This document shows positions 27,107 through 51,315 of a stretch of DNA of 57,811 nucleotides, piece by piece. Every line of letters starts with the position of its first letter. Position 1 is the first letter of the stretch. A program made the translations under genes and the position numbers. Source of the stretch: a virus. Taxonomy: Duplodnaviria > Caudoviricetes. Location of the stretch: positions 1 through 57,811 of IMG/VR virus record IMGVR_UViG_3300044641_001974; one strand, 5' to 3'. The notes beneath the pieces were generated by a model. The model worked only from the letters and a program-made list of their open reading frames with translations, was not told the origin of the DNA and searched no databases.

Positions 27107-27146
27107 CAGTTTTTTAGATAAAATGGGTTATCCCCGGAGGCGAATC

Positions 27147-27632
27147 ATGAAATTTACCATTAAGAAGGTTGATTTACGCAATGAGTCTAATAAGACCGTA
27201 ATTCTTTACCTTCAGAAAAAAATACTGCCTTCGGATGCTCCTTACAAACCAACTCACGGGCATTGGTGGTTAGCTTACACAGAAGAAGGCAAACCAGTAG
27301 CATTTGCTGGGCTAGTAAGATCACAACGATTTACAGACACAGGTTACCTTTGTCGTGCAGGGGTTTTAGATGAGTACACAGGGCACCGTTTGCAAAGACG
27401 TTTAATTAATGTAAGAATCCGTAAGGCCAAGGAATTAGGCTGGAATTGGATTATTACAGATACAACCGATAACCCTGCTTCATCTAACTCGTTAATTAAT
27501 GCTGGCTTTAAAATTTATACCCCTAGTACCCCGTGGTCGTTTAAGCACGCAATCTATTGGAAATACAGGGTAGACCAGAGCGATGCCTTACAAAGACCCA
27601 AACGATCCAAGAAAAAAGCAGGCGTTGCGTAG
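27147..27632 (+). CDS. GNAT-family acetyltransferase
   Basis: GYLCRAGVLDEYTGHRLQRRL acetyl-CoA motif A and NPASSNSLINAGF motif B; GGAGG RBS before the ATG at 27147. Confidence 0.75.
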   Translation: MKFTIKKVDLRNESNKTVILYLQKKILPSDAPYKPTHGHWWLAYTEEGKPVAFAGLVRSQRFTDTGYLCRAGVLDEYTGHRLQRRLINVRIRKAKELGWNWIITDTTDNPASSNSLINAGFKIYTPSTPWSFKHAIYWKYRVDQSDALQRPKRSKKKAGVA

Positions 27633-39162: not shown

Positions 39163-39269
39163 TATGAATCCTAACTAGTTAGGATTCATAGTCAAGGGCT
39201 ATCGGCTCAGCCGAGCCGATAGCTAATTCCTAATTAGCTATCAACTATCAGGGCTCACGCCCTGATAGT
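39163..39269. repeat. Cluster of four abutting or overlapping inverted repeats
   Basis: 28-bp perfect palindrome 39163-39190; 11-bp stems at 39198-39223, 39218-39242 and 39244-39269. Confidence 0.9.
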
Positions 39270-39278
39270 AACAATCAA

Positions 39279-39494
39279 CTAGACAGCTACCTCGTCTAGT
39301 GTTAGGTCAAACAGGTCACGCCCGCACAATCCGTAGATTGTGATAATAGGTGGCGTGTCCTGAGCCAGACACGCAAACACTCCCGTGATAAATGCTTGCT
39401 GGTGATTCTGATACTTAATCGTATTACGCTTAAGTTTGTTACGCTTTGCGTAAGCTACCCATTCAATAGCTATTTGTTTACCTGTGACTTTCAT
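39279..39494 (-). CDS. Small early hypothetical protein, about 71 aa
   Basis: ATG at 39494 after an AGGAGAAATCAGA leader. Confidence 0.6.
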   Translation of the reverse strand: MKVTGKQIAIEWVAYAKRNKLKRNTIKYQNHQQAFITGVFACLAQDTPPIITIYGLCGRDLFDLTLDEVAV

Positions 39495-39551
39495 TCTGAT
39501 TTCTCCTGTGGTTACACGGGGATTAATCCCCGTGTAAGTATTATACATCAA
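39495..39551 (-). promoter_or_regulatory. Repeated element 1: TGTATAATAC + 26-bp palindrome + AGGAGAAAT RBS
   Basis: TTACACGGGGATTAATCCCCGTGTAA at 39512-39537. Confidence 0.8.
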
Positions 39552-39752
39552 TTAAAACCAATCGTCACTATTTTCAGTATTACCAATATCTTCCAGACTA
39601 GTAACTAGCCCGTCGAAATCTTCAGTTTCCCCCAGCAGGTCTGCTAGGGCAAATACAGTAGAACGCTCAATGCCCATACCATCAGCGAGCTGTTGCAAAT
39701 AATCCTTACGGGATTCATAACCATTAATTTCATAAACATTATCCATTCTCAT
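39552..39752 (-). CDS. Small acidic early hypothetical protein
   Basis: NGYESRKDYL...EDFDGLVTSLED; follows a repeated leader. Confidence 0.6.
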   Translation of the reverse strand: MRMDNVYEINGYESRKDYLQQLADGMGIERSTVFALADLLGETEDFDGLVTSLEDIGNTENSDDWF

Positions 39753-39805
39753 TTCTCCTGTTAAGTAATCACGGGCATATGCCCGTGATTAGTATTATAC
39801 ATCAA
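39753..39805 (-). promoter_or_regulatory. Repeated element 2
   Basis: TAATCACGGGCATATGCCCGTGATTA at 39766-39791, next to GTATTATACATCA. Confidence 0.8.
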
Positions 39806-40149
39806 TATTCAGAAGTCAACAGTAAAACATTGTCAGTAAAGTAAAAACGATACTCTCCATCTGGGCAATCAGTAAAACTGATTTCCTTGTTCCAGAGCGT
39901 GGTTAGGTTTCCGTCAGTTGCAACAATCGACGCTTGCTCATTGGCTACTGTCATTGTGATGGAAAGAAAACCCTCTTTCTTTTGCAACGGAAATAATTCC
40001 GTATCCACAATGTCTAAGAACCAATACGCCCCAGCTTTTTCGGCGAAATACTTTACGCCGTCAGTATAAACAGTATCGTGCATCAGGTTATGGCGATACC
40101 AGTTTTCCGTGCCTGTGAAATTACTTAAGTCATTTACTAGCATTCTCAT
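39802..40149 (-). CDS. DUF6876-like early protein
   Basis: FTGTENWYRH...YTDGVKYFAEKAGAYWFLD...VLLLTSEY. Confidence 0.6.
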   Translation of the reverse strand: MRMLVNDLSNFTGTENWYRHNLMHDTVYTDGVKYFAEKAGAYWFLDIVDTELFPLQKKEGFLSITMTVANEQASIVATDGNLTTLWNKEISFTDCPDGEYRFYFTDNVLLLTSEY

Positions 40150-40200
40150 TTCTCCTTTAGTAAGCATGGGAATTATTTCCCATGCTTGTATTATACATCA
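40150..40200 (-). promoter_or_regulatory. Repeated element 3
   Basis: AAGCATGGGAA-ttat-TTCCCATGCTT at 40162-40187, then GTATTATACATCA. Confidence 0.8.
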
Positions 40201-40536
40201 GTCAACAGAAACAGTAAACGACATATCTTTAACCACTCTAATTATGTGGTCATCATCTACTTCAATCATCTGCTGGATGCTCTCTTCGTAATCATAGATG
40301 TCGAAGTTGTTACGAGCCCAATGGTCACAGATTGACTCACCCTCTTCGTTGACCAGCTCCCGCACCTTGATATCAAATTCGTCGCTGTCCAAAAGATGGG
40401 CACTAACATTTGCCATTACTTCCTTGGCTACTGCTTTGACCAGAGCATCGAACACACTCTCCAATGGAGTGAGTGGGGTACTGCAGTCAATCGTAGCTAC
40501 TGGGGTTTGTACTGCTGTGGTTTCAATAACAGTCAT
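40198..40536 (-). CDS. Acidic early hypothetical protein, 112 aa
   Basis: ORF following the repeated leader; strongly D/E-rich. Confidence 0.6.
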   Translation of the reverse strand: MTVIETTAVQTPVATIDCSTPLTPLESVFDALVKAVAKEVMANVSAHLLDSDEFDIKVRELVNEEGESICDHWARNNFDIYDYEESIQQMIEVDDDHIIRVVKDMSFTVSVD

Positions 40537-40591
40537 TTCTCATTTCTCCTTTAAAGTACGGGAACTATTCCCGTACTTGTATTATACACAA
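40537..40591 (-). promoter_or_regulatory. Repeated element 4
   Basis: AAGTACGGGAA-cta-TTCCCGTACTT at 40554-40578, then GTATTATACACA. Confidence 0.8.
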
Positions 40592-40637
40592 TAAAAGACA
40601 ATAAGGTAAAGAATTATTAACATTACTATTGCTGTGG

Positions 40638-40940
40638 TCATTCCTCTTGGCTCTCTCTTTCTTCTACTAGTGCTGCAGGCCAGTAAGCAATGAACCCCCG
40701 CCCCATGCTATCGAGCTGGGGCGCCGGAGTTATTGATCCGGACGGATCACGATCAAAGTACAGTGCGCGAGCCATCTCAAATCCCAGCTCGAACAGCTCG
40801 TTCGAGCTGTTGAGTTCAGTACTCAGACATACCCGCCCGCTCATACCACGGCCCGAGTATGTCCGAACACCTTCGGAGAAATTCGTTTGGTCCAACAAGC
40901 CAAGCACGTGCTTGGCTGTTTCGTTTAAAGGCTTAATCAT
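40638..40940 (-). CDS. Early hypothetical protein, about 100 aa
   Basis: YSGRGMSGRVC...DSMGRGFIAYWP; ATG at 40940. Confidence 0.55.
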   Translation of the reverse strand: MIKPLNETAKHVLGLLDQTNFSEGVRTYSGRGMSGRVCLSTELNSSNELFELGFEMARALYFDRDPSGSITPAPQLDSMGRGFIAYWPAALVEERESQEE

Positions 40941-41229
40941 CTTGGCTCTCCTCAGCAATGATGTCGTTCCACGTTTCAACAAAGTGCATGGCAATTTCGT
41001 GCCAATTGATCTGGGCAACAAACGCCCTGGCGTAGTCTAAAGTGAGGCCTTCCTCGCAAGGTCCGCCGAGAATTTCATCTACGTATTCGCTTAAATACTC
41101 AGCAATCTCCCATGGGTCTGGCTCACAATAACGTGTAAGCATGGGGATGTTAGTGCAGTCCCAGCCATCAAAAACTTCCAAATTAATACGCCATGTGGCG
41201 TAATTTGTCCAACCGTTATATGTACTCAT
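40933..41229 (-). CDS. Conserved phage early protein (YNGWTNYATW family)
   Basis: YNGWTNYATW...INWHEIA. Confidence 0.6.
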   Translation of the reverse strand: MSTYNGWTNYATWRINLEVFDGWDCTNIPMLTRYCEPDPWEIAEYLSEYVDEILGGPCEEGLTLDYARAFVAQINWHEIAMHFVETWNDIIAEESQDD

Positions 41230-41306
41230 TTCTCATTTCTCCTTAAGAATGCCCTACACCTGTAGGGCATGTCTGTATTATACACAGGGATAAATCCCTG
41301 TGTCAA
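41230..41306 (-). promoter_or_regulatory. Repeated element 5 with full promoter TTGACA-N18-TATAAT
   Basis: The spacer is itself palindromic (CACAGGGATTTATCCCTGTG); stem ATGCCCTACA/TGTAGGGCAT at 41249-41270. Confidence 0.85.
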
Positions 41307-41310
41307 CACT

Positions 41311-41757
41311 CTACCAGCTAGACCTATAATGGAACTGCCATTTGTCGTCAAACGCTTGCAAGGCTTTGTCTAAGCCCTGCACAGTTCCTTCGATGTCATT
41401 CCAGTACCATTCATCGTACTCAGTAGACCCAAAGAAAAAGCCGTCAGCCGTGGGCAAGGTTTCTTCTGCCATTTCCCTTTGTGTGCAAAGCTTTGCACAC
41501 AAATCACGGAGCTCAACTAATTGCTCACGCTCCACGTAGTAACGCTGGCAATTATCTTCGCCACCTTGAATGTTTTCCACAAACCATTTGTGGATTGCAT
41601 TGGCTTTACGCCAATACATGGCTTCTGCTTCAACAGAATTGACACGCATTCTTTCTCCATCTAATTGCAAACCCAAGAGGTTTGCAACTTCATCCGAGAT
41701 TGGTTTCTCGGATGACCAAATGTAACGCTCTGCTGTTAAGTACATATCTAAACCCAT
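41311..41757 (-). CDS. Conserved phage protein (MGLDMYL / YWRKANAIH family)
   Basis: MGLDMYL...YWRKANAIHKWF...GFFFGSTEYDEWY...YRSSW. Confidence 0.65.
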   Translation of the reverse strand: MGLDMYLTAERYIWSSEKPISDEVANLLGLQLDGERMRVNSVEAEAMYWRKANAIHKWFVENIQGGEDNCQRYYVEREQLVELRDLCAKLCTQREMAEETLPTADGFFFGSTEYDEWYWNDIEGTVQGLDKALQAFDDKWQFHYRSSW

Positions 41758-41811
41758 GGTAATTCTCCTTAATAGTTTTTGGTTATCACGGCCTTCGCCG
41801 TGATAGTTTGG

Positions 41812-42039
41812 TTAATAACTCTGTCTTGCTTCTGCTTGGTGTTCTTCCATTAATTGCTTACGCAAATCAATGGTGTCTTGCAAAGACTGAATAGTCTTTT
41901 TAAGGTCAAAATTGTGCTCGGAAAGTTCTTCGAGCAAATCGCCGTCGTCGTAGGCTTCAACAACCAAATCCCAACCTTCGTTGTAGTGGTCATTAGCATA
42001 CTTACGAATAAACTGAATACAGGCTTGTTCATCTTTCAT
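41812..42039 (-). CDS. Small early hypothetical protein
   Basis: YANDHYNEGWDLVVE; follows a repeated leader. Confidence 0.55.
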   Translation of the reverse strand: MKDEQACIQFIRKYANDHYNEGWDLVVEAYDDGDLLEELSEHNFDLKKTIQSLQDTIDLRKQLMEEHQAEARQSY

Positions 42040-42100
42040 TTCTAATTTCTCCTTTGGTTAATGGTTCATGAATCATGAACCATGATTGTATTATACACAA
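42040..42100 (-). promoter_or_regulatory. Repeated element 6
   Basis: ATGGTTCATG-aat-CATGAACCAT at 42061-42083, then TGTATTATACACA. Confidence 0.75.
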
Positions 42101-42235
42101 TCATAAATAATTAGCATAGGGATTTTCCCCTATGCTCATGGCTCATGGCTCACGCCACAAGTTTCGTGGCTCAAGGGGCAGGGGCGAGGGGGCTAGTTTG
42201 TGCATACGCAATATACTGCTTAAAAATTAAGCAAC

Positions 42236-42272
42236 AAATAAAAATCCCTTATAGTTCAAAGCTATAAGGGAT
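42236..42272 (-). terminator. Probable terminator
   Basis: 11-bp stem ATCCCTTATAG/CTATAAGGGAT followed by a T-rich run on the minus strand. Confidence 0.6.
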
Positions 42273-42303
42273 AAGTTTTTAATAGTTTATTGTTATTAAG
42301 AAT

Positions 42304-42819
42304 TTATGCTGTTTTGGGTGTTTTCCAGCCAATGTTTTGCAAATCTGCAACCAATCCAGCAATCGCTGGTAGGGTTTTGCATCTGCTTCCATCAATTTCA
42401 GGCAAATACTTTGCAAACTCTGGCAACGCTTCCCGTGCTGTCTTGACTGTCGTAAAGCTGTCAATCACGCCACGCAACTTAGTTTCCAAATCCCAACGCT
42501 TTTTCTGCTGTTCGTTTTCCTGCTTTTTCAAATAATCAATCTCAGCAAGAAAATCCATATCCGTCACAACACAATCCATTGGAATTAAAGGTGAAGAGAA
42601 CCAGCCCAAATACTCACTACCATAATATAGGCTAACGCAATTTTGCCCAACATACTTTTTGGTTTTTGGATTGTCATAAACCTTTTTAACCTCAGCAGGG
42701 GCAATCTGATAGAAATACTGCTTTACCCTGTCAGAAATTTGGGTGTTGTAGTCTACCAATGACGAGTCATCTAGAACCGATTTGATAAACGCTTGTTTGA
42801 TTGAATTGTTTAATCTCAT
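42304..42819 (-). CDS. Nmad5-like (nucleotide modification associated domain 5) protein
   Basis: MRLNNSIKQAFI start and C-terminal TTVKTAREALPEFAKYLP pattern; recognised from memory. Confidence 0.55.
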   Translation of the reverse strand: MRLNNSIKQAFIKSVLDDSSLVDYNTQISDRVKQYFYQIAPAEVKKVYDNPKTKKYVGQNCVSLYYGSEYLGWFSSPLIPMDCVVTDMDFLAEIDYLKKQENEQQKKRWDLETKLRGVIDSFTTVKTAREALPEFAKYLPEIDGSRCKTLPAIAGLVADLQNIGWKTPKTA

Positions 42820-42875
42820 TTCTCATTTCTCCTAAAAATAGCACGGGGATATTCCCGTGCTTGTATTATACACAA
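42820..42875 (-). promoter_or_regulatory. Repeated element 7
   Basis: AGCACGGG-gatatt-CCCGTGCT at 42840-42861, then TGTATTATACACA. Confidence 0.8.
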
Positions 42876-43541
42876 CCCTGATTATTGTTGTAAAGGTCTT
42901 TTAGTAATAAATCCTCTTGAATTCGCTTTGCCCATTCATCTGTCATTTCTTCTCCAGCATGGTGAAGTAATTCATCTACTAAATCGCTGGTCGGGGTGTC
43001 AAATAATTGGTCTAGCATGTGCTCAGCAATTTCAGGGTGATAACGCTCATGGATAGCGTGTATGCTCATAGGGTTAGACATTTTCCTTCTCCAAAATAAG
43101 TTTTTCAATTTGTAAAATGTGTGGCATGTCCTTCATGCCAATTCCACCTGTTTTAAGTTCAATCAATAAACTGCGTAGTCTGGCTACACTCCAACAATAA
43201 TAATTAGGCATTTTGAATTTCCTCAGCAACATAAACATACCTATCCCAATTTGGGTCGCTGGGGTCATCAAACTCTTCTTTTTCCAGAAGTGAATATCCA
43301 ATCCCCTCTGCATCTTCAAAACTCAGGGCTTCAACAACCTTCAATTGAGCAACCTTTTTAATTAGGTAAACCTCATACAGGGGCATTTTTATATCCCTTC
43401 ATAAAAGTAAGATTCAATATTGATGACCACAATTCCACTACTGTTGACCCATTTCATGTGGTCATTGAATGTGCCTATAACAGTTTCATATCGCTGTGTA
43501 AGCTGGTCATACAGGTCAATTAAATAAAGTTGGCTAAGCAT
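42866..43541 (-). CDS. Run of four tiny ORFs (42866-43081, 43074-43211, 43204-43386, 43389-43541)
   Basis: Overlapping or abutting start/stop junctions; no recognisable motifs. Confidence 0.45.
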
Positions 43542-44124
43542 GTTGAACCTCCATTTTTGTTAACCACGCTGGGGTAGAAAACATTGTGTGCTCTGCCCGA
43601 TAGGGCATCATCAATCCAGCAAAGTAGTCAGGCTTACCAATGTCAACCAACGCTGTGCCTGTGCCATTGTGTCCAATAGTAGGCATGGGGTTTTTCATGC
43701 CCAATGCTTTGCCAACCTTCGTAAACCTTGCAATAAAGTCAGGATTAAATTGTGCAATCTCGCCTGATATTTTGCCCGTAGGAAATACTCGCATGTAGTC
43801 AGGGAATGTGCCTTCAATCCCGCTAAACCCAACATTGTCAATTACATACTTATCACCTTCTTTTGACAAAGTATGATGCAACGCTTTCTTATTTAGCTTT
43901 TCAATTACCTCATGGGGAACAATCACACGGAATGGCTCACCTTCGTCACCATTCTTATTGCTTTGTTGATACACGCCCAACAAATGGCCGTCAGTCGCAA
44001 CAGCACGGATTAGTTTGTTATCCACTTCCAACAATACCCCGTTCAGGTAATAACGAATATCTTTCTTGGCAGAAAGAATAGACATAGCATTCAGAACACC
44101 ACCATCAAAATATATATTTCTCAT
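43534..44124 (-). CDS. DNA polymerase III beta-clamp-like protein (partial, about 196 aa)
   Basis: DIRYYLNGVLLE...AVATDGHLL...IEGTFPDYMRVFP...FNPDF...LMMP match the central and C-terminal domains of DnaN. Confidence 0.75.
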   Translation of the reverse strand: MRNIYFDGGVLNAMSILSAKKDIRYYLNGVLLEVDNKLIRAVATDGHLLGVYQQSNKNGDEGEPFRVIVPHEVIEKLNKKALHHTLSKEGDKYVIDNVGFSGIEGTFPDYMRVFPTGKISGEIAQFNPDFIARFTKVGKALGMKNPMPTIGHNGTGTALVDIGKPDYFAGLMMPYRAEHTMFSTPAWLTKMEVQHA

Positions 44125-44168
44125 TTCTACGCTCCTTAAAAGGGTCAACCAATTTAACCCATATTTGT

Positions 44169-44196
44169 ATAATACACATTTATTCTAGGCTGTCAA
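44169..44196 (-). promoter_or_regulatory. Sigma70-like promoter TTGACA-N16-TATTAT
   Basis: Read directly upstream of the clamp-like gene. Confidence 0.55.
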
Positions 44197-44238
44197 GTAT
44201 CCACCATAAAATAATAAATCCCAGCAAAACTAAAAATA

Positions 44239-44883
44239 TCATATTGCCCCCACAGTCGCCCCAGCATACTTTGTGGCAAAAATCTCACGCTTTGCCCTAT
44301 GGATTAAATCAAACGCACCCTCTTCCCATGAAGTAGATTCATACATTCCAACCCACTCGTCGTAAATTTCTTCCCCGTCCCTGTGTGCCTGAACATGAAC
44401 AGATACATAATTCCAATCACCACAGATATAACCTTCAAAATAGGTTATCTCACGCTTTACTGCGTCAAGGGCTTTACGTTGTAAATCTGCTTTGCCTGTT
44501 TTGCCATTTTCATAATCCTTACGGGCTCTTTTCAAGGCTTCTGCAAAATTGTAGTAATAGTTTTCACGCCCATAGCTACGCACCTGAACATTTCCATTTC
44601 CAGCATTCTCTGCATAGCGTTGCATAGGCTTAATTGTGCCAAATCCTTCGCACCAATCCCACGGGGCTTCAGAACAATGGTCAGGAACAACCTCCAAAGT
44701 AATAGAACAGTTTCTAGGCAAGTCACGATAAATAATCTCAACAGGCTTACCATAGTAGTGATAGCTAGTATCCAAACACAGGTCAGCATACTTCTTCTGC
44801 ACACGCAACAACGCCAAAGCACCCTTCGCTGGTATGTCAGGTGAGGCCTTCCGGATTTTCATATATTCAGCAAACATTCTCAT
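44239..44883 (-). CDS. Early hypothetical protein, 214 aa
   Basis: AGGAGAAATGAGAATG leader; no clear motif. Confidence 0.6.
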   Translation of the reverse strand: MRMFAEYMKIRKASPDIPAKGALALLRVQKKYADLCLDTSYHYYGKPVEIIYRDLPRNCSITLEVVPDHCSEAPWDWCEGFGTIKPMQRYAENAGNGNVQVRSYGRENYYYNFAEALKRARKDYENGKTGKADLQRKALDAVKREITYFEGYICGDWNYVSVHVQAHRDGEEIYDEWVGMYESTSWEEGAFDLIHRAKREIFATKYAGATVGAI

Positions 44884-44889
44884 TTCTCC

Positions 44890-45746
44890 TTATTCAAAGT
44901 CTTTAGACACAAACACATTGTTTTTACGCAACAGGGCAATAGCATGGTCATTCAGACTCATCACCCCGTCGTACTCGCACAGCGATCTTTTGCCATCTTT
45001 GTCAAACTCAAACCACAAACCAATGTACTCAAACCTATCAATACTAGGTATATCCCATTCAATAAAACCTGTATTGTCTTTGTTGTAATAAAGTTCTAGG
45101 GTAGATTCGTGCTCACCTAATCCTCTTTCACCCCATGAACCTTCCAAAACCAATGGGGAAGTAACAGTCATCGTATCAATAAGTTCAGACATCTTTGTAC
45201 TCCTCTTCTTCTTCTTCGTAAATAAAATAAGGCACGTCCATATACTCACCCTCAAAAGGTACTGCCGTTACAAAATAATTAATACGATTAACAAGGTGAT
45301 ACCCACTACTGATATACAGATTGCCGTCGTCACCATCAATCAACGTCCAAATGCACCTTGGGTCTTGTGCTCTAACAAAATCTAAATCCTTACCATATGT
45401 TTCAAACTTATCGGTGACTGCGTTCATATCAATGTGGTTATCCATTGGCTGATACTTCAAGCACCATGCGTTAAATTCATCTTCCCAATCCATACTATTT
45501 CTCCTTTCTTAGATTAACTGCCTGCAACACTACTTCTTTGCCCCAATCCGCCATTTCGGTATCAGGGTTTATAGGACACGCAACAACAGAGAAAATACCT
45601 GTTTCGTGGTAGTCACAAATATTTATCTCATAGTCTGCAAACTTGTAGAACCAATCATTCTCTTTAAGAATCTCCTGCTTGTACTTGGAAAGCAAAAACG
45701 GAACACGCTCCCGTACAGGCAACGTTTCTATATCAACAACTTTCAT
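44890..45746 (-). CDS. Three small acidic hypothetical ORFs (44890-45192, 45185-45493, 45495-45746)
   Basis: Each has an AGGAG RBS; e.g. FETYG...IWTLIDGD...GYHLVNRINYFVT. Confidence 0.55.
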
Positions 45747-45793
45747 ACTATTTCTCCTTTCTAAAGGTGCTCAATTCTGTAGAGCACGGGATT

Positions 45794-45821
45794 AGTATAA
45801 TACTAATTAAAACTATGTCAA
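45794..45821 (-). promoter_or_regulatory. Sigma70-like promoter TTGACA-N16-TATACT heading the early array
   Basis: Followed by a GTGCTC/GAGCAC stem and an AGGAGAAAT RBS. Confidence 0.55.
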
Positions 45822-46223
45822 CAACTTTTTTCTAATTTCTGACCAATCAACAGAAGAAGCTAAGTATCGTAGTAAAAACGGAGCATCTATACCCCGTTCA
45901 AAAACCTCGATCGCTCTCCTTCCCTCATATAGTGACAGATAATTTAGAGGTCCACCTAGCAGTTTATGTTGCACCAAAATAAATACAGGCGCTCCCATTT
46001 TGGAGTGCTTGATTAGAAAAGAAATTTGGTGCGGGCTGAGATTTACCTTCTTTCCTTTTTGCACCACCTTGAGCTCCATCATCACAAATAACCCTTCAGG
46101 GTCTAGGGCTATCAGCATGTCGGGTATACCTAATCCCGTCCTAGATTCAAGCCTTGTTATGTGACTCTTTGGCAGGTTCTGCTGTACTTTCTTCCCCAGC
46201 AGACTCTCCGGTTTCGTCGTCAT
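45813..46223 (-). CDS. PD-(D/E)xK nuclease (VRR-NUC / Holliday junction resolvase-like)
   Basis: E...RLE...GIPD...ELK...LSPHQISF. Confidence 0.7.
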   Translation of the reverse strand: MTTKPESLLGKKVQQNLPKSHITRLESRTGLGIPDMLIALDPEGLFVMMELKVVQKGKKVNLSPHQISFLIKHSKMGAPVFILVQHKLLGGPLNYLSLYEGRRAIEVFERGIDAPFLLRYLASSVDWSEIRKKLLT

Positions 46224-51269: not shown

Positions 51270-51315
51270 ACTACCTCCCTGTATCGAATTATATTATACA
51301 CAAGGCTAGTTACAC

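Follow-up and report, generated by a model that had tools for sequence, protein, structure and literature searches.

Between the terS-like gene and terL of IMG/VR record IMGVR_UViG_3300044641_001974, a lake podovirus whose full 57,811 bp we refer to as the window, lies an array of small genes in which one short unit of box, hairpin and leader recurs on the minus strand. We consider it probable that this array is a hyperplastic region of short units that are read by host RNA polymerase, give transcripts with a 5' hairpin, and exchange genes at translation-start sequences without a recombinase. Each unit would consist of a sigma70-type promoter (-35 TTGACA or TTTACN, 16-18 bp spacer, -10 within the invariant TGTATAATAC, here called the box), a GC-cored palindrome that closely follows the -10 hexamer and holds the predicted start in its 5' arm, and an unpaired leader, AGGAGAAAT.AGA(A)ATG. 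The base-paired 5' end of the transcript may hinder 5'-end-dependent decay (RppH and RNase E, or RNase J), and the free Shine-Dalgarno (SD) sequence may give strong expression of any small gene downstream. In the part of PMC3997798 that concerns mRNA 5' ends, secondary structure there is described as stabilising, as RppH and RNase E require single-stranded 5' ends. In read-through RNA, the full hairpin would lie just behind the upstream stop codon and may also serve as a 3' barrier or attenuator. Genes would be gained, lost, replaced and relocated through homologous or microhomology recombination at short conserved translation-start sequences, chiefly the 16-17 nt leader and then the box, within one genome or between co-infecting relatives and with no dedicated recombinase.

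The repeated unit and its predicted transcript

Seven exact copies of TGTATAATAC lie on the minus strand (first bases 39547, 39801, 40197, 40588, 41284, 42097 and 42872), which holds no other copy; the plus strand has it once, as the complement of a TGTATTATAC variant at 44176. If one mismatch is tolerated, the two strands together yield 16 matches where 3.5 would be expected; none of 100 shuffles attains 16. Ten copies of the leader sequence AGGAGAAAT lie on the minus strand, from 39499 to 45758, and one lies on the plus strand elsewhere, compared with an expectation of 0.49 for both strands; in the units the leader follows the hairpin. A first-pass annotation of the window had described a minus-strand unit in at least seven copies, with stems at 39512-39537, 39766-39791, 40162-40187, 40554-40578, 41249-41270, 42061-42083 and 42840-42861. 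All seven are found there, with folding energies of -12 to -18.3 kcal/mol, z-scores of -2.9 to -5.65 relative to dinucleotide shuffles, and the SD sequence unpaired. It had also seen a YAYGGG...CCCRTR core in five stems, spaced by 6-8 nt, and an upstream stop codon in or beside the box in four of the seven units; both observations hold. Of the degenerate copies that it listed, the one at 45.8 kb folds weakly, and the hairpin at 41784-41805 has no box. The units are as follows.

39492..39568, minus strand: unit of a gene of 71 amino acids (aa); -35 GTGACG (39568), 17 bp spacer; box 39547-39538; hairpin 39537-39512, z -4.93; SD leader; ATG 39494; covariance score 70.5 bits
39744..39819, minus strand: unit of the 64-aa gene; box 39801-39792; hairpin 39791-39766, z -5.65; leader; ATG 39746; 68.4 bits
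40141..40218, minus strand: unit of the DUF6876 gene; -35 TTTACT, 17 bp; box 40197-40188; hairpin 40187-40162, z -4.48; leader; ATG 40143; 79.8 bits
40534..40610, minus strand: unit of the 112-aa gene; -35 TTTACC, 18 bp; box 40588-40579; hairpin 40578-40554, z -4.69; leader; ATG 40536; 67.7 bits
41227..41306, minus strand: unit of the DUF7249 gene; TTGACA-18-TATAAT (12/12) with a palindrome in the spacer; box 41284-41275; hairpin 41270-41249, z -3.97; leader; ATG 41229; 47.4 bits, outside the model seed
42037..42097, minus strand: unit of the 75-aa gene; no -35 listed by the promoter scan; box 42097-42088; hairpin 42083-42061, z -2.92; leader; ATG 42039; 45.4 bits, outside the seed
42817..42894, minus strand: unit of the Nmad5-domain gene; -35 TTTACA, 18 bp; box 42872-42863, containing the upstream stop codon; hairpin 42861-42840 followed by a T-run, z -3.79; leader; ATG 42819; 71.5 bits
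44122..44196, minus strand: degenerate unit of the clamp-like gene; TTGACA-16-TATTAT; weak hairpin, z -1.0; SD AGGAGCG; ATG 44124; 25.3 bits
45744..45821, minus strand: degenerate unit at the array head; TTGACA-16-TATACT; weak hairpin 45787-45767, z -1.93; leader AGGAGAAATAGTATG
41784..41805, minus strand: hairpin without box or promoter, 6 nt past the stop of the 75-aa gene and swapped along with that gene in the relative L202

A covariance model, which the first-pass annotation had proposed as a check, was seeded with 19 units, five of them from the window. On the window it recovers the seven exact units, the two outside the seed among them, with scores of 45-80 bits and on the minus strand throughout; the unit at 44.2 kb reaches 25 bits, and there is no other convincing match. 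The best 80 of the 345 related stretches that a terL search yielded were retained; the exact unit is present in eight of these 80, all close relatives. As a control, 2.9 million viral contigs were scanned for the box followed by GGAGAAAT at the spacing of the unit, which gave 111 stretches, about the number expected by chance on a rough estimate. Among the 65 single-copy matches elsewhere, a hairpin of -8 kcal/mol or below is found in one, and that one is a relative of the window phage. Multiple copies are present in nine contigs, eight of which are related to the window by TerL or DNA alignment, while the relatedness of the ninth (L160) was judged from the appearance of its units only. Across the contigs scanned, the multi-copy element thus appears confined to the clade of the window phage.

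The same design extends further with altered sequences. A distant clade (TerL ~77%) has the same architecture with a different leader, ...AGAAAGGATAGAG(A)AATG. Of its 122 distinct leaders, 62 have a promoter-like site, and 30 of these 62 a hairpin of -7 kcal/mol or below, whose stem mostly starts 3-7 nt after the -10. The isolated Phage DSL-LC04 likewise carries small genes between terS and terL, with promoter, hairpin and a leader, ACATACAGGAGAAAG.

The boxes read as the -10 elements of putative sigma70-type promoters. A promoter scan finds sites at seven of the nine units, one matching the consensus at 12/12 positions, three at 11/12 and three at 10/12: TTGACA-18-TATAAT at 41306, TTGACA-16 at 45821 and 44196, TTTACA-18 at 42894, TTTACC-18 at 40610, TTTACT-17 at 40218 and GTGACG-17 at 39568. 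Most of the best gene-strand matches within 38-58 kb fall at array units, and all but one at units or just before terL. The total number of promoter-like sites (28) is not above that in shuffles (32.8), and therefore the argument rests on the top-scoring sites and not on the count. The -35 often overlaps the final codons of the upstream gene. The first-pass annotation had seen no well-spaced -35 in the four units with a stop codon at the box. This is so for the unit at 39801, where the only candidate, TTGACT, lies just 14 bp upstream of TATAAT, but not for those with -35 elements at 40218, 39568 and 42894, each of which matches at least four of six positions at a spacing of 17-18 bp. An extended -10 (TGnTATAAT) was considered and rejected because the TG abuts TATAAT, one position off. 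No Pfam match to RNA polymerase, integrase, serine recombinase or transposase families was obtained among the 78 open reading frames (ORFs) of the window, in keeping with the earlier remark that it holds no integrase; since no phage RNA polymerase is matched, the host holoenzyme is the likely reader of the units.

Transcription from sigma70 promoters usually starts 5-8 nt past the -10. The stems begin 2-8 nt past the TATAAT hexamer, and if the usual geometry is assumed, all seven exact units would give a transcript with 0-2 unpaired 5' nucleotides followed by a stem of 4-10 bp. The seventh nucleotide after TATAAT is A in six of the seven, and this A sits in the YAYGGG core of the 5' stem arm, where we predict the start to be. 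Each transcript would consequently begin with a hairpin and a free SD sequence. The shared YAYGGG core could then be explained by a pyrimidine-purine start context, with CCCRTR as its complement. Two further features of these sites were observed. The 12/12 promoter (41276-41306) has a 7-bp palindrome, CAGGGAT...ATCCCTG, in the spacer between -35 and -10, and similar ones occur in the distant clade, e.g., in L022. Read on the plus strand, 42840-42871, 41249-41280 and 42061-42093 each present a hairpin and then the T-rich complement of the box and score as intrinsic-terminator-like, so that these units would also stop antisense transcription.

Pairing was assessed on a 19-unit sub-alignment with the helix given explicitly, in which three to four rows stand one or two columns out of register and were counted as unpaired. 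Paired cells amount to 88.1%, compared with 69.5% in shuffles (none of 500 reaches the observed value) and 28-46% in controls with slid partners, and eight of the 11 stem pairs change on both sides. Compensatory changes are also present in orthologous hairpins, for example between the 42083-42061 stem and those of L122 and L150. These data support selection on the hairpin as a structure and not as a fixed operator, as the first-pass annotation had held. RNAalifold predicted no consensus structure from a MAFFT alignment of 33 units because their stems are out of register. Of the 37 distinct units found in relatives, 33 have folding energies of -5 kcal/mol or below and four have no hairpin; the hairpin would thus be an optional add-on to a working promoter and leader.

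Gene turnover and the positions of joints

The content and order of array genes vary between relatives. An unrelated gene replaces the DUF7249 gene in L009 and L011 but not in L010. The 112-aa gene, which in the window precedes the DUF6876 gene, is found between the 64-aa and 71-aa genes in L013, and L017 has the 212-aa and 100-aa genes in the order opposite to that of the window as well as cassettes missing from L019. We mapped joints at nucleotide level in the close relatives L009/L201, L202, L203 and L150 (the last being the same contig as L202), obtaining eight events with 16 joints. One joint is at a box (42875), two are in leaders of promoter units (41229 and ~42045), and none is in a hairpin. 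The remaining 13 lie in ribosome-binding-site (RBS), start-codon or stop contexts without a box, one of them ~35 nt inside an ORF. One of the inserts in L202 has the leader, and nothing else, as a direct repeat on either side, and another insert is bounded by a 19-nt repeat across a stop-start overlap. In more diverged comparisons, L013 has the upstream part and the hairpin family of the window unit at 40588 joined to the DUF6876 gene, L017 differs from L019 by three genes and one unit lying between two leaders, and L017 and L019 share an identical hairpin-less unit of 36 nt that has unrelated DNA on both sides. Our reading is that the promoter units probably act as one source of exchange sequences and not as a dedicated site.

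The first-pass annotation had proposed a cassette system shuffled by recombination at the box and hairpin. The shuffling stands, as gene order is not kept among relatives; the centring on box and hairpin does not, since breakpoints fall mostly off the element and a box-free run of small genes at 46.9-51.7 kb has the same indels. In contigs of two RNA-library and two DNA runs, which drop rare forms, no deletion joints, circles or pile-ups of starts or ends were seen over the stretches that they cover. Independent lake DNA runs have loose contig ends at 41189-41229 (including an alternative allele) and at 44238/44287, which match variant alleles of IMG/VR relatives.

Several observations accompany these comparisons. 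The DUF7249 gene and its unrelated replacement in L009 (7060-7085) share their final codons, ...EESQDD* (window 40940-40960); because this stretch is also the RBS and overlapping start of the next gene, a joint there is dual-coding. In L012 (1-180), the end of the 64-aa gene, a unit and the start of the 71-aa gene are inverted and abut the region upstream of terL, which reflects either a true inversion or a chimeric assembly at a palindrome; this case was not used. The run at 46.9-51.7 kb, between DNA polymerase and the terS-like gene, comprises ~20 small genes without a box and shows gene-sized indels in L202-L204. The leaders in this run are similar to GAAATTAGAAAGGAA and to AAGGATAG, of which the second is also the type used in the distant clade; a hairpin-less box variant, TGTATAATAT, lies at 51300.

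Role of the hairpin and comparison with known systems

Several points weigh against the interpretation given at the outset. The outer two to four stem pairs lie upstream of any canonical start, yet they covary. Together with the promoter-less hairpin at 41784-41805, this means that the full hairpin would form only in read-through RNA or single-stranded DNA, and a purely 5'-terminal role leaves the covarying outer pairs unexplained. Arm complementarity could also be maintained by events at the palindromes in DNA, with no selection on RNA. The promoters are judged by sigma70 rules, which are assumed to apply to the host. Contigs from RNA libraries span several units and most of the array, although contigs can neither show starts nor prove transcription. 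Finally, units are present at nine of 20 gene starts but at three of 16 joints, and are thus not enriched among the latter.

The covarying outer pairs raise the possibility that the hairpin acts chiefly on read-through RNA, in the manner of the promoter early stem-loop (PeSL) elements of T4-type phages, as a terminator or attenuator or as a barrier to 3' exonucleases for the upstream cistron, with its overlap of the start being incidental. We regard this as less likely than a role at the 5' end, but a 3' barrier or attenuator is a serious partner or rival to it. The upstream stop codon lies 10-16 nt before the hairpin in four units, the promoter-less hairpin stands 6 nt past a stop and travels with that gene, and one PeSL stem-loop is described, in the relevant portion of PMC2839356, as lowering reporter expression to roughly the extent that a strong terminator does. 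However, a T-run follows one of the seven unit hairpins only (42861-42840), and the stem keeps its distance from the -10 (2-8 nt) and not from the upstream stop, a spacing that recurs in most hairpin-bearing units of the distant clade, at 3-7 nt. That stems differ between units and even between orthologous units, that their arm spacing varies from 3 to 8 nt and their position by up to 6 nt, and that four of the 37 units have no palindrome, makes it most improbable that the palindromes or the box are operators through which a dimeric phage repressor shuts the promoters off jointly. The distant clade moreover retains the hairpin and not the extended box. Such a repressor would account for a 10-mer invariant beyond what sigma70 needs, for GTATAATAC within it being itself a 9-nt palindrome, and for the overlap of the palindromes with the predicted start site. 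An HK022 put-like antiterminator or RNase III sites are likewise not favoured on sequence grounds because each hairpin stands alone, is short (8-12 bp) and has a variable sequence.

Events at the DNA level are evident from the loops. Near-identical hairpins that differ solely by exact reverse-complementation of the centre were found in three independent cases:

Loop inversion 1: window 42861-42840 versus L009 (5233), L122 and L150
Loop inversion 2: window hairpin 41270-41249 versus L011 (348)
Loop inversion 3: L017 (9257) versus L019 (8636)

Among hairpin pairs at least 88% alike, three flip events stand against three ordinary differences; in the distant clade no flip was seen, with just two comparable hairpin pairs. 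Such minute hairpin-loop inversions are known in chloroplast non-coding DNA, where the loop is likewise exactly reverse-complemented between kept arms and the change recurs independently; here they concern promoter-proximal hairpins of phages, and three cases only. As read from the aligned hairpins, the flips show template switching or arm-to-arm recombination at palindromes in DNA, with the orientation of the loop unconstrained. It is a step further to suppose that the palindromes are DNA structures, cruciforms or single-strand hairpins, that form recombination hot spots in an integrase-free analogue of attC, perhaps cut by a junction resolvase. The flips, the location of 10 of 11 perfect palindromes (arms of at least 11 nt) in 39.1-42.1 kb and a weak match to a Holliday-junction-resolvase PHROG at 45813-46223 would fit, but no integrase or recombinase family is matched, hairpin-less units also exchange, none of the 16 joints is inside a hairpin while 13 are at gene boundaries without box or hairpin, and the contigs of four runs, which drop rare forms, have no deletion or circle joints; we consider this reading unlikely. 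Only slightly less doubtful is the related view that the palindromes invert their loops repeatedly and seed cassette exchange through cruciform or hairpin processing in replication, as a system without an integrase. If it were true, each incoming gene would be given a standard 'expression socket', made up of a promoter, an insulating hairpin and a leader that is always the same. The positions of the joints speak against palindromes as the principal way in which cassettes are exchanged.

Among known systems, the PeSLs of T4-type myoviruses (Arbiol et al. 2010, PMC2839356; Comeau et al. 2014, PMC4122927) come closest, and the array is PeSL-like in a new phage group, making the comparison drawn by the first-pass annotation an apt one. 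In the parts of these two papers that describe the element, PeSLs share with the window units the order of upstream stop, strong sigma70-like promoter, stem-loop, and then SD sequence and start codon, and both precede small ORFans in hyperplastic regions where close relatives differ by indels, replacements and moves. Those parts distinguish five positional subclasses of stem-loop, one of which is downstream of the -10; in the window all stems are downstream of the -10, always just after it and over the predicted start. They treat the PeSL stem-loop as a terminator or attenuator, a role not evident for the six of seven window hairpins without a T-run. They give ~100 bp for the conserved stretch, while in the window it comprises a box of 10 nt and a leader of 17 nt, with a variable hairpin between them. 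They also report mini-circles from PeSL-PeSL recombination, which were not seen for the window in the contigs of four runs, where rare forms are dropped. Joints at window units are no commoner than at plain gene starts. The carriers of PeSLs are T4-type myoviruses, whereas the window phage is not T4-type (TerL kin DSL-LC04/HTVC023P, 57.8 kb). Our search of the PeSL literature found no paper on the DSL-LC04/HTVC023P podovirus group, and the genome paper on HTVC023P-type phages does not mention promoters, hairpins or intergenic repeats.

The 5'-terminal stabilisers of the ompA and papA type, in so far as PMC3997798 treats them, resemble the window units in having a hairpin at the 5' end, 0-2 unpaired nucleotides and a free SD sequence, the start of the window transcripts being a predicted one. 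They differ in that the window hairpin is repeated before many unrelated genes and its outer pairs reach upstream of the predicted start; stabilisation by it is a prediction. With the attC sites of integrons, to which the first-pass annotation had also pointed, the window shares imperfect palindromes, conserved in structure and variable in sequence, at cassette boundaries and sometimes by a stop codon. The array is not integron-like: there is no match to an integrase or recombinase in the 78 ORFs, no joint in a hairpin, the element is confined to one clade, and each cassette has its own promoter instead of a common Pc. The stems of attC carry extrahelical bases, unlike the short perfect hairpins of the window.

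Array genes, genome layout and significance

The genes of the array and the terminator-like sites among them are as follows.

39279..45746, minus strand: eighteen small genes of 44-212 aa
39802-40143, minus strand: DUF6876 gene, by family match
40933-41229, minus strand: DUF7249 gene, by family match
42304-42819, minus strand: Nmad5-domain gene, a family match to a partial domain
43534-44124, minus strand: sliding-clamp-like gene, 196 aa, matching the central domain of the DNA polymerase III beta clamp in Pfam
42244..42272, minus strand: intrinsic-terminator-like hairpin and T-run, 3' of the Nmad5-domain gene
42113-42136: second intrinsic-terminator-like hairpin

The remaining genes match no family, or PHROGs of unknown function only. 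The clamp-like protein also matches a PHROG labelled as RusA-like resolvase, a label that looks doubtful. Nmad5 is linked, in the section of PMC11846954 that deals with it, to DNA modification and to sensing by Tmn defence. Between the last cassette gene and terL, a non-coding gap of ~300 nt holds four perfect palindromes with arms of 11-14 nt (39163-39269), preceded by a degenerate box; they may form a cluster of terminators, belong to a small structured RNA or mark a site related to packaging. The concentration of palindromes in 39.1-42.1 kb noted above refers to all those with such arms in the whole record.

The window spans the whole IMG/VR record, which has an estimated completeness of 98%, and we take the phage to be near-complete. 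Nearly all genes are on the minus strand, in this order:

57.6-51.7 kb, minus strand: primase, UvrD-type helicase and family A DNA polymerase
51.7-46.9 kb, minus strand: first small-gene run, followed by the terS-like gene
45813-46223: weak match to Holliday-junction-resolvase PHROGs, directly upstream of the array
45.8-39.3 kb, minus strand: the small-gene array under study, between the terS-like gene and terL
38978-37515, minus strand: terL, followed by portal, capsid, tail and lysis genes

The sole sizeable gene on the opposite strand is a GNAT acetyltransferase ORF (27123-27632, plus strand) inside the structural module. Among named phages, TerL is nearest to that of the lake isolate Phage DSL-LC04 (64%) and to those of the Pelagibacter phages HTVC027P and HTVC023P (53-56%), and the sequencing runs that contain window DNA are mostly labelled as lake or freshwater metagenomes. 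A megablast of the array region against named phages gave no match, Rfam gave none at gathering score over the entire window, and ARAGORN found no tRNA.

Taken together, our results extend the picture of mobile regulatory cassettes from T4-type myoviruses to abundant freshwater and marine podoviruses related to DSL-LC04 and HTVC023P. They also refine the model: what recombines would mainly be the short RBS leader where a gene starts, whether or not a promoter precedes it, and the hairpin behaves like an RNA-end structure under selection, with a loop that flips in the DNA. The units would offer ready natural modules of promoter, 5' hairpin and RBS, and they mark the spots at which accessory genes of unknown function, possibly serving in counter-defence, are turned over.

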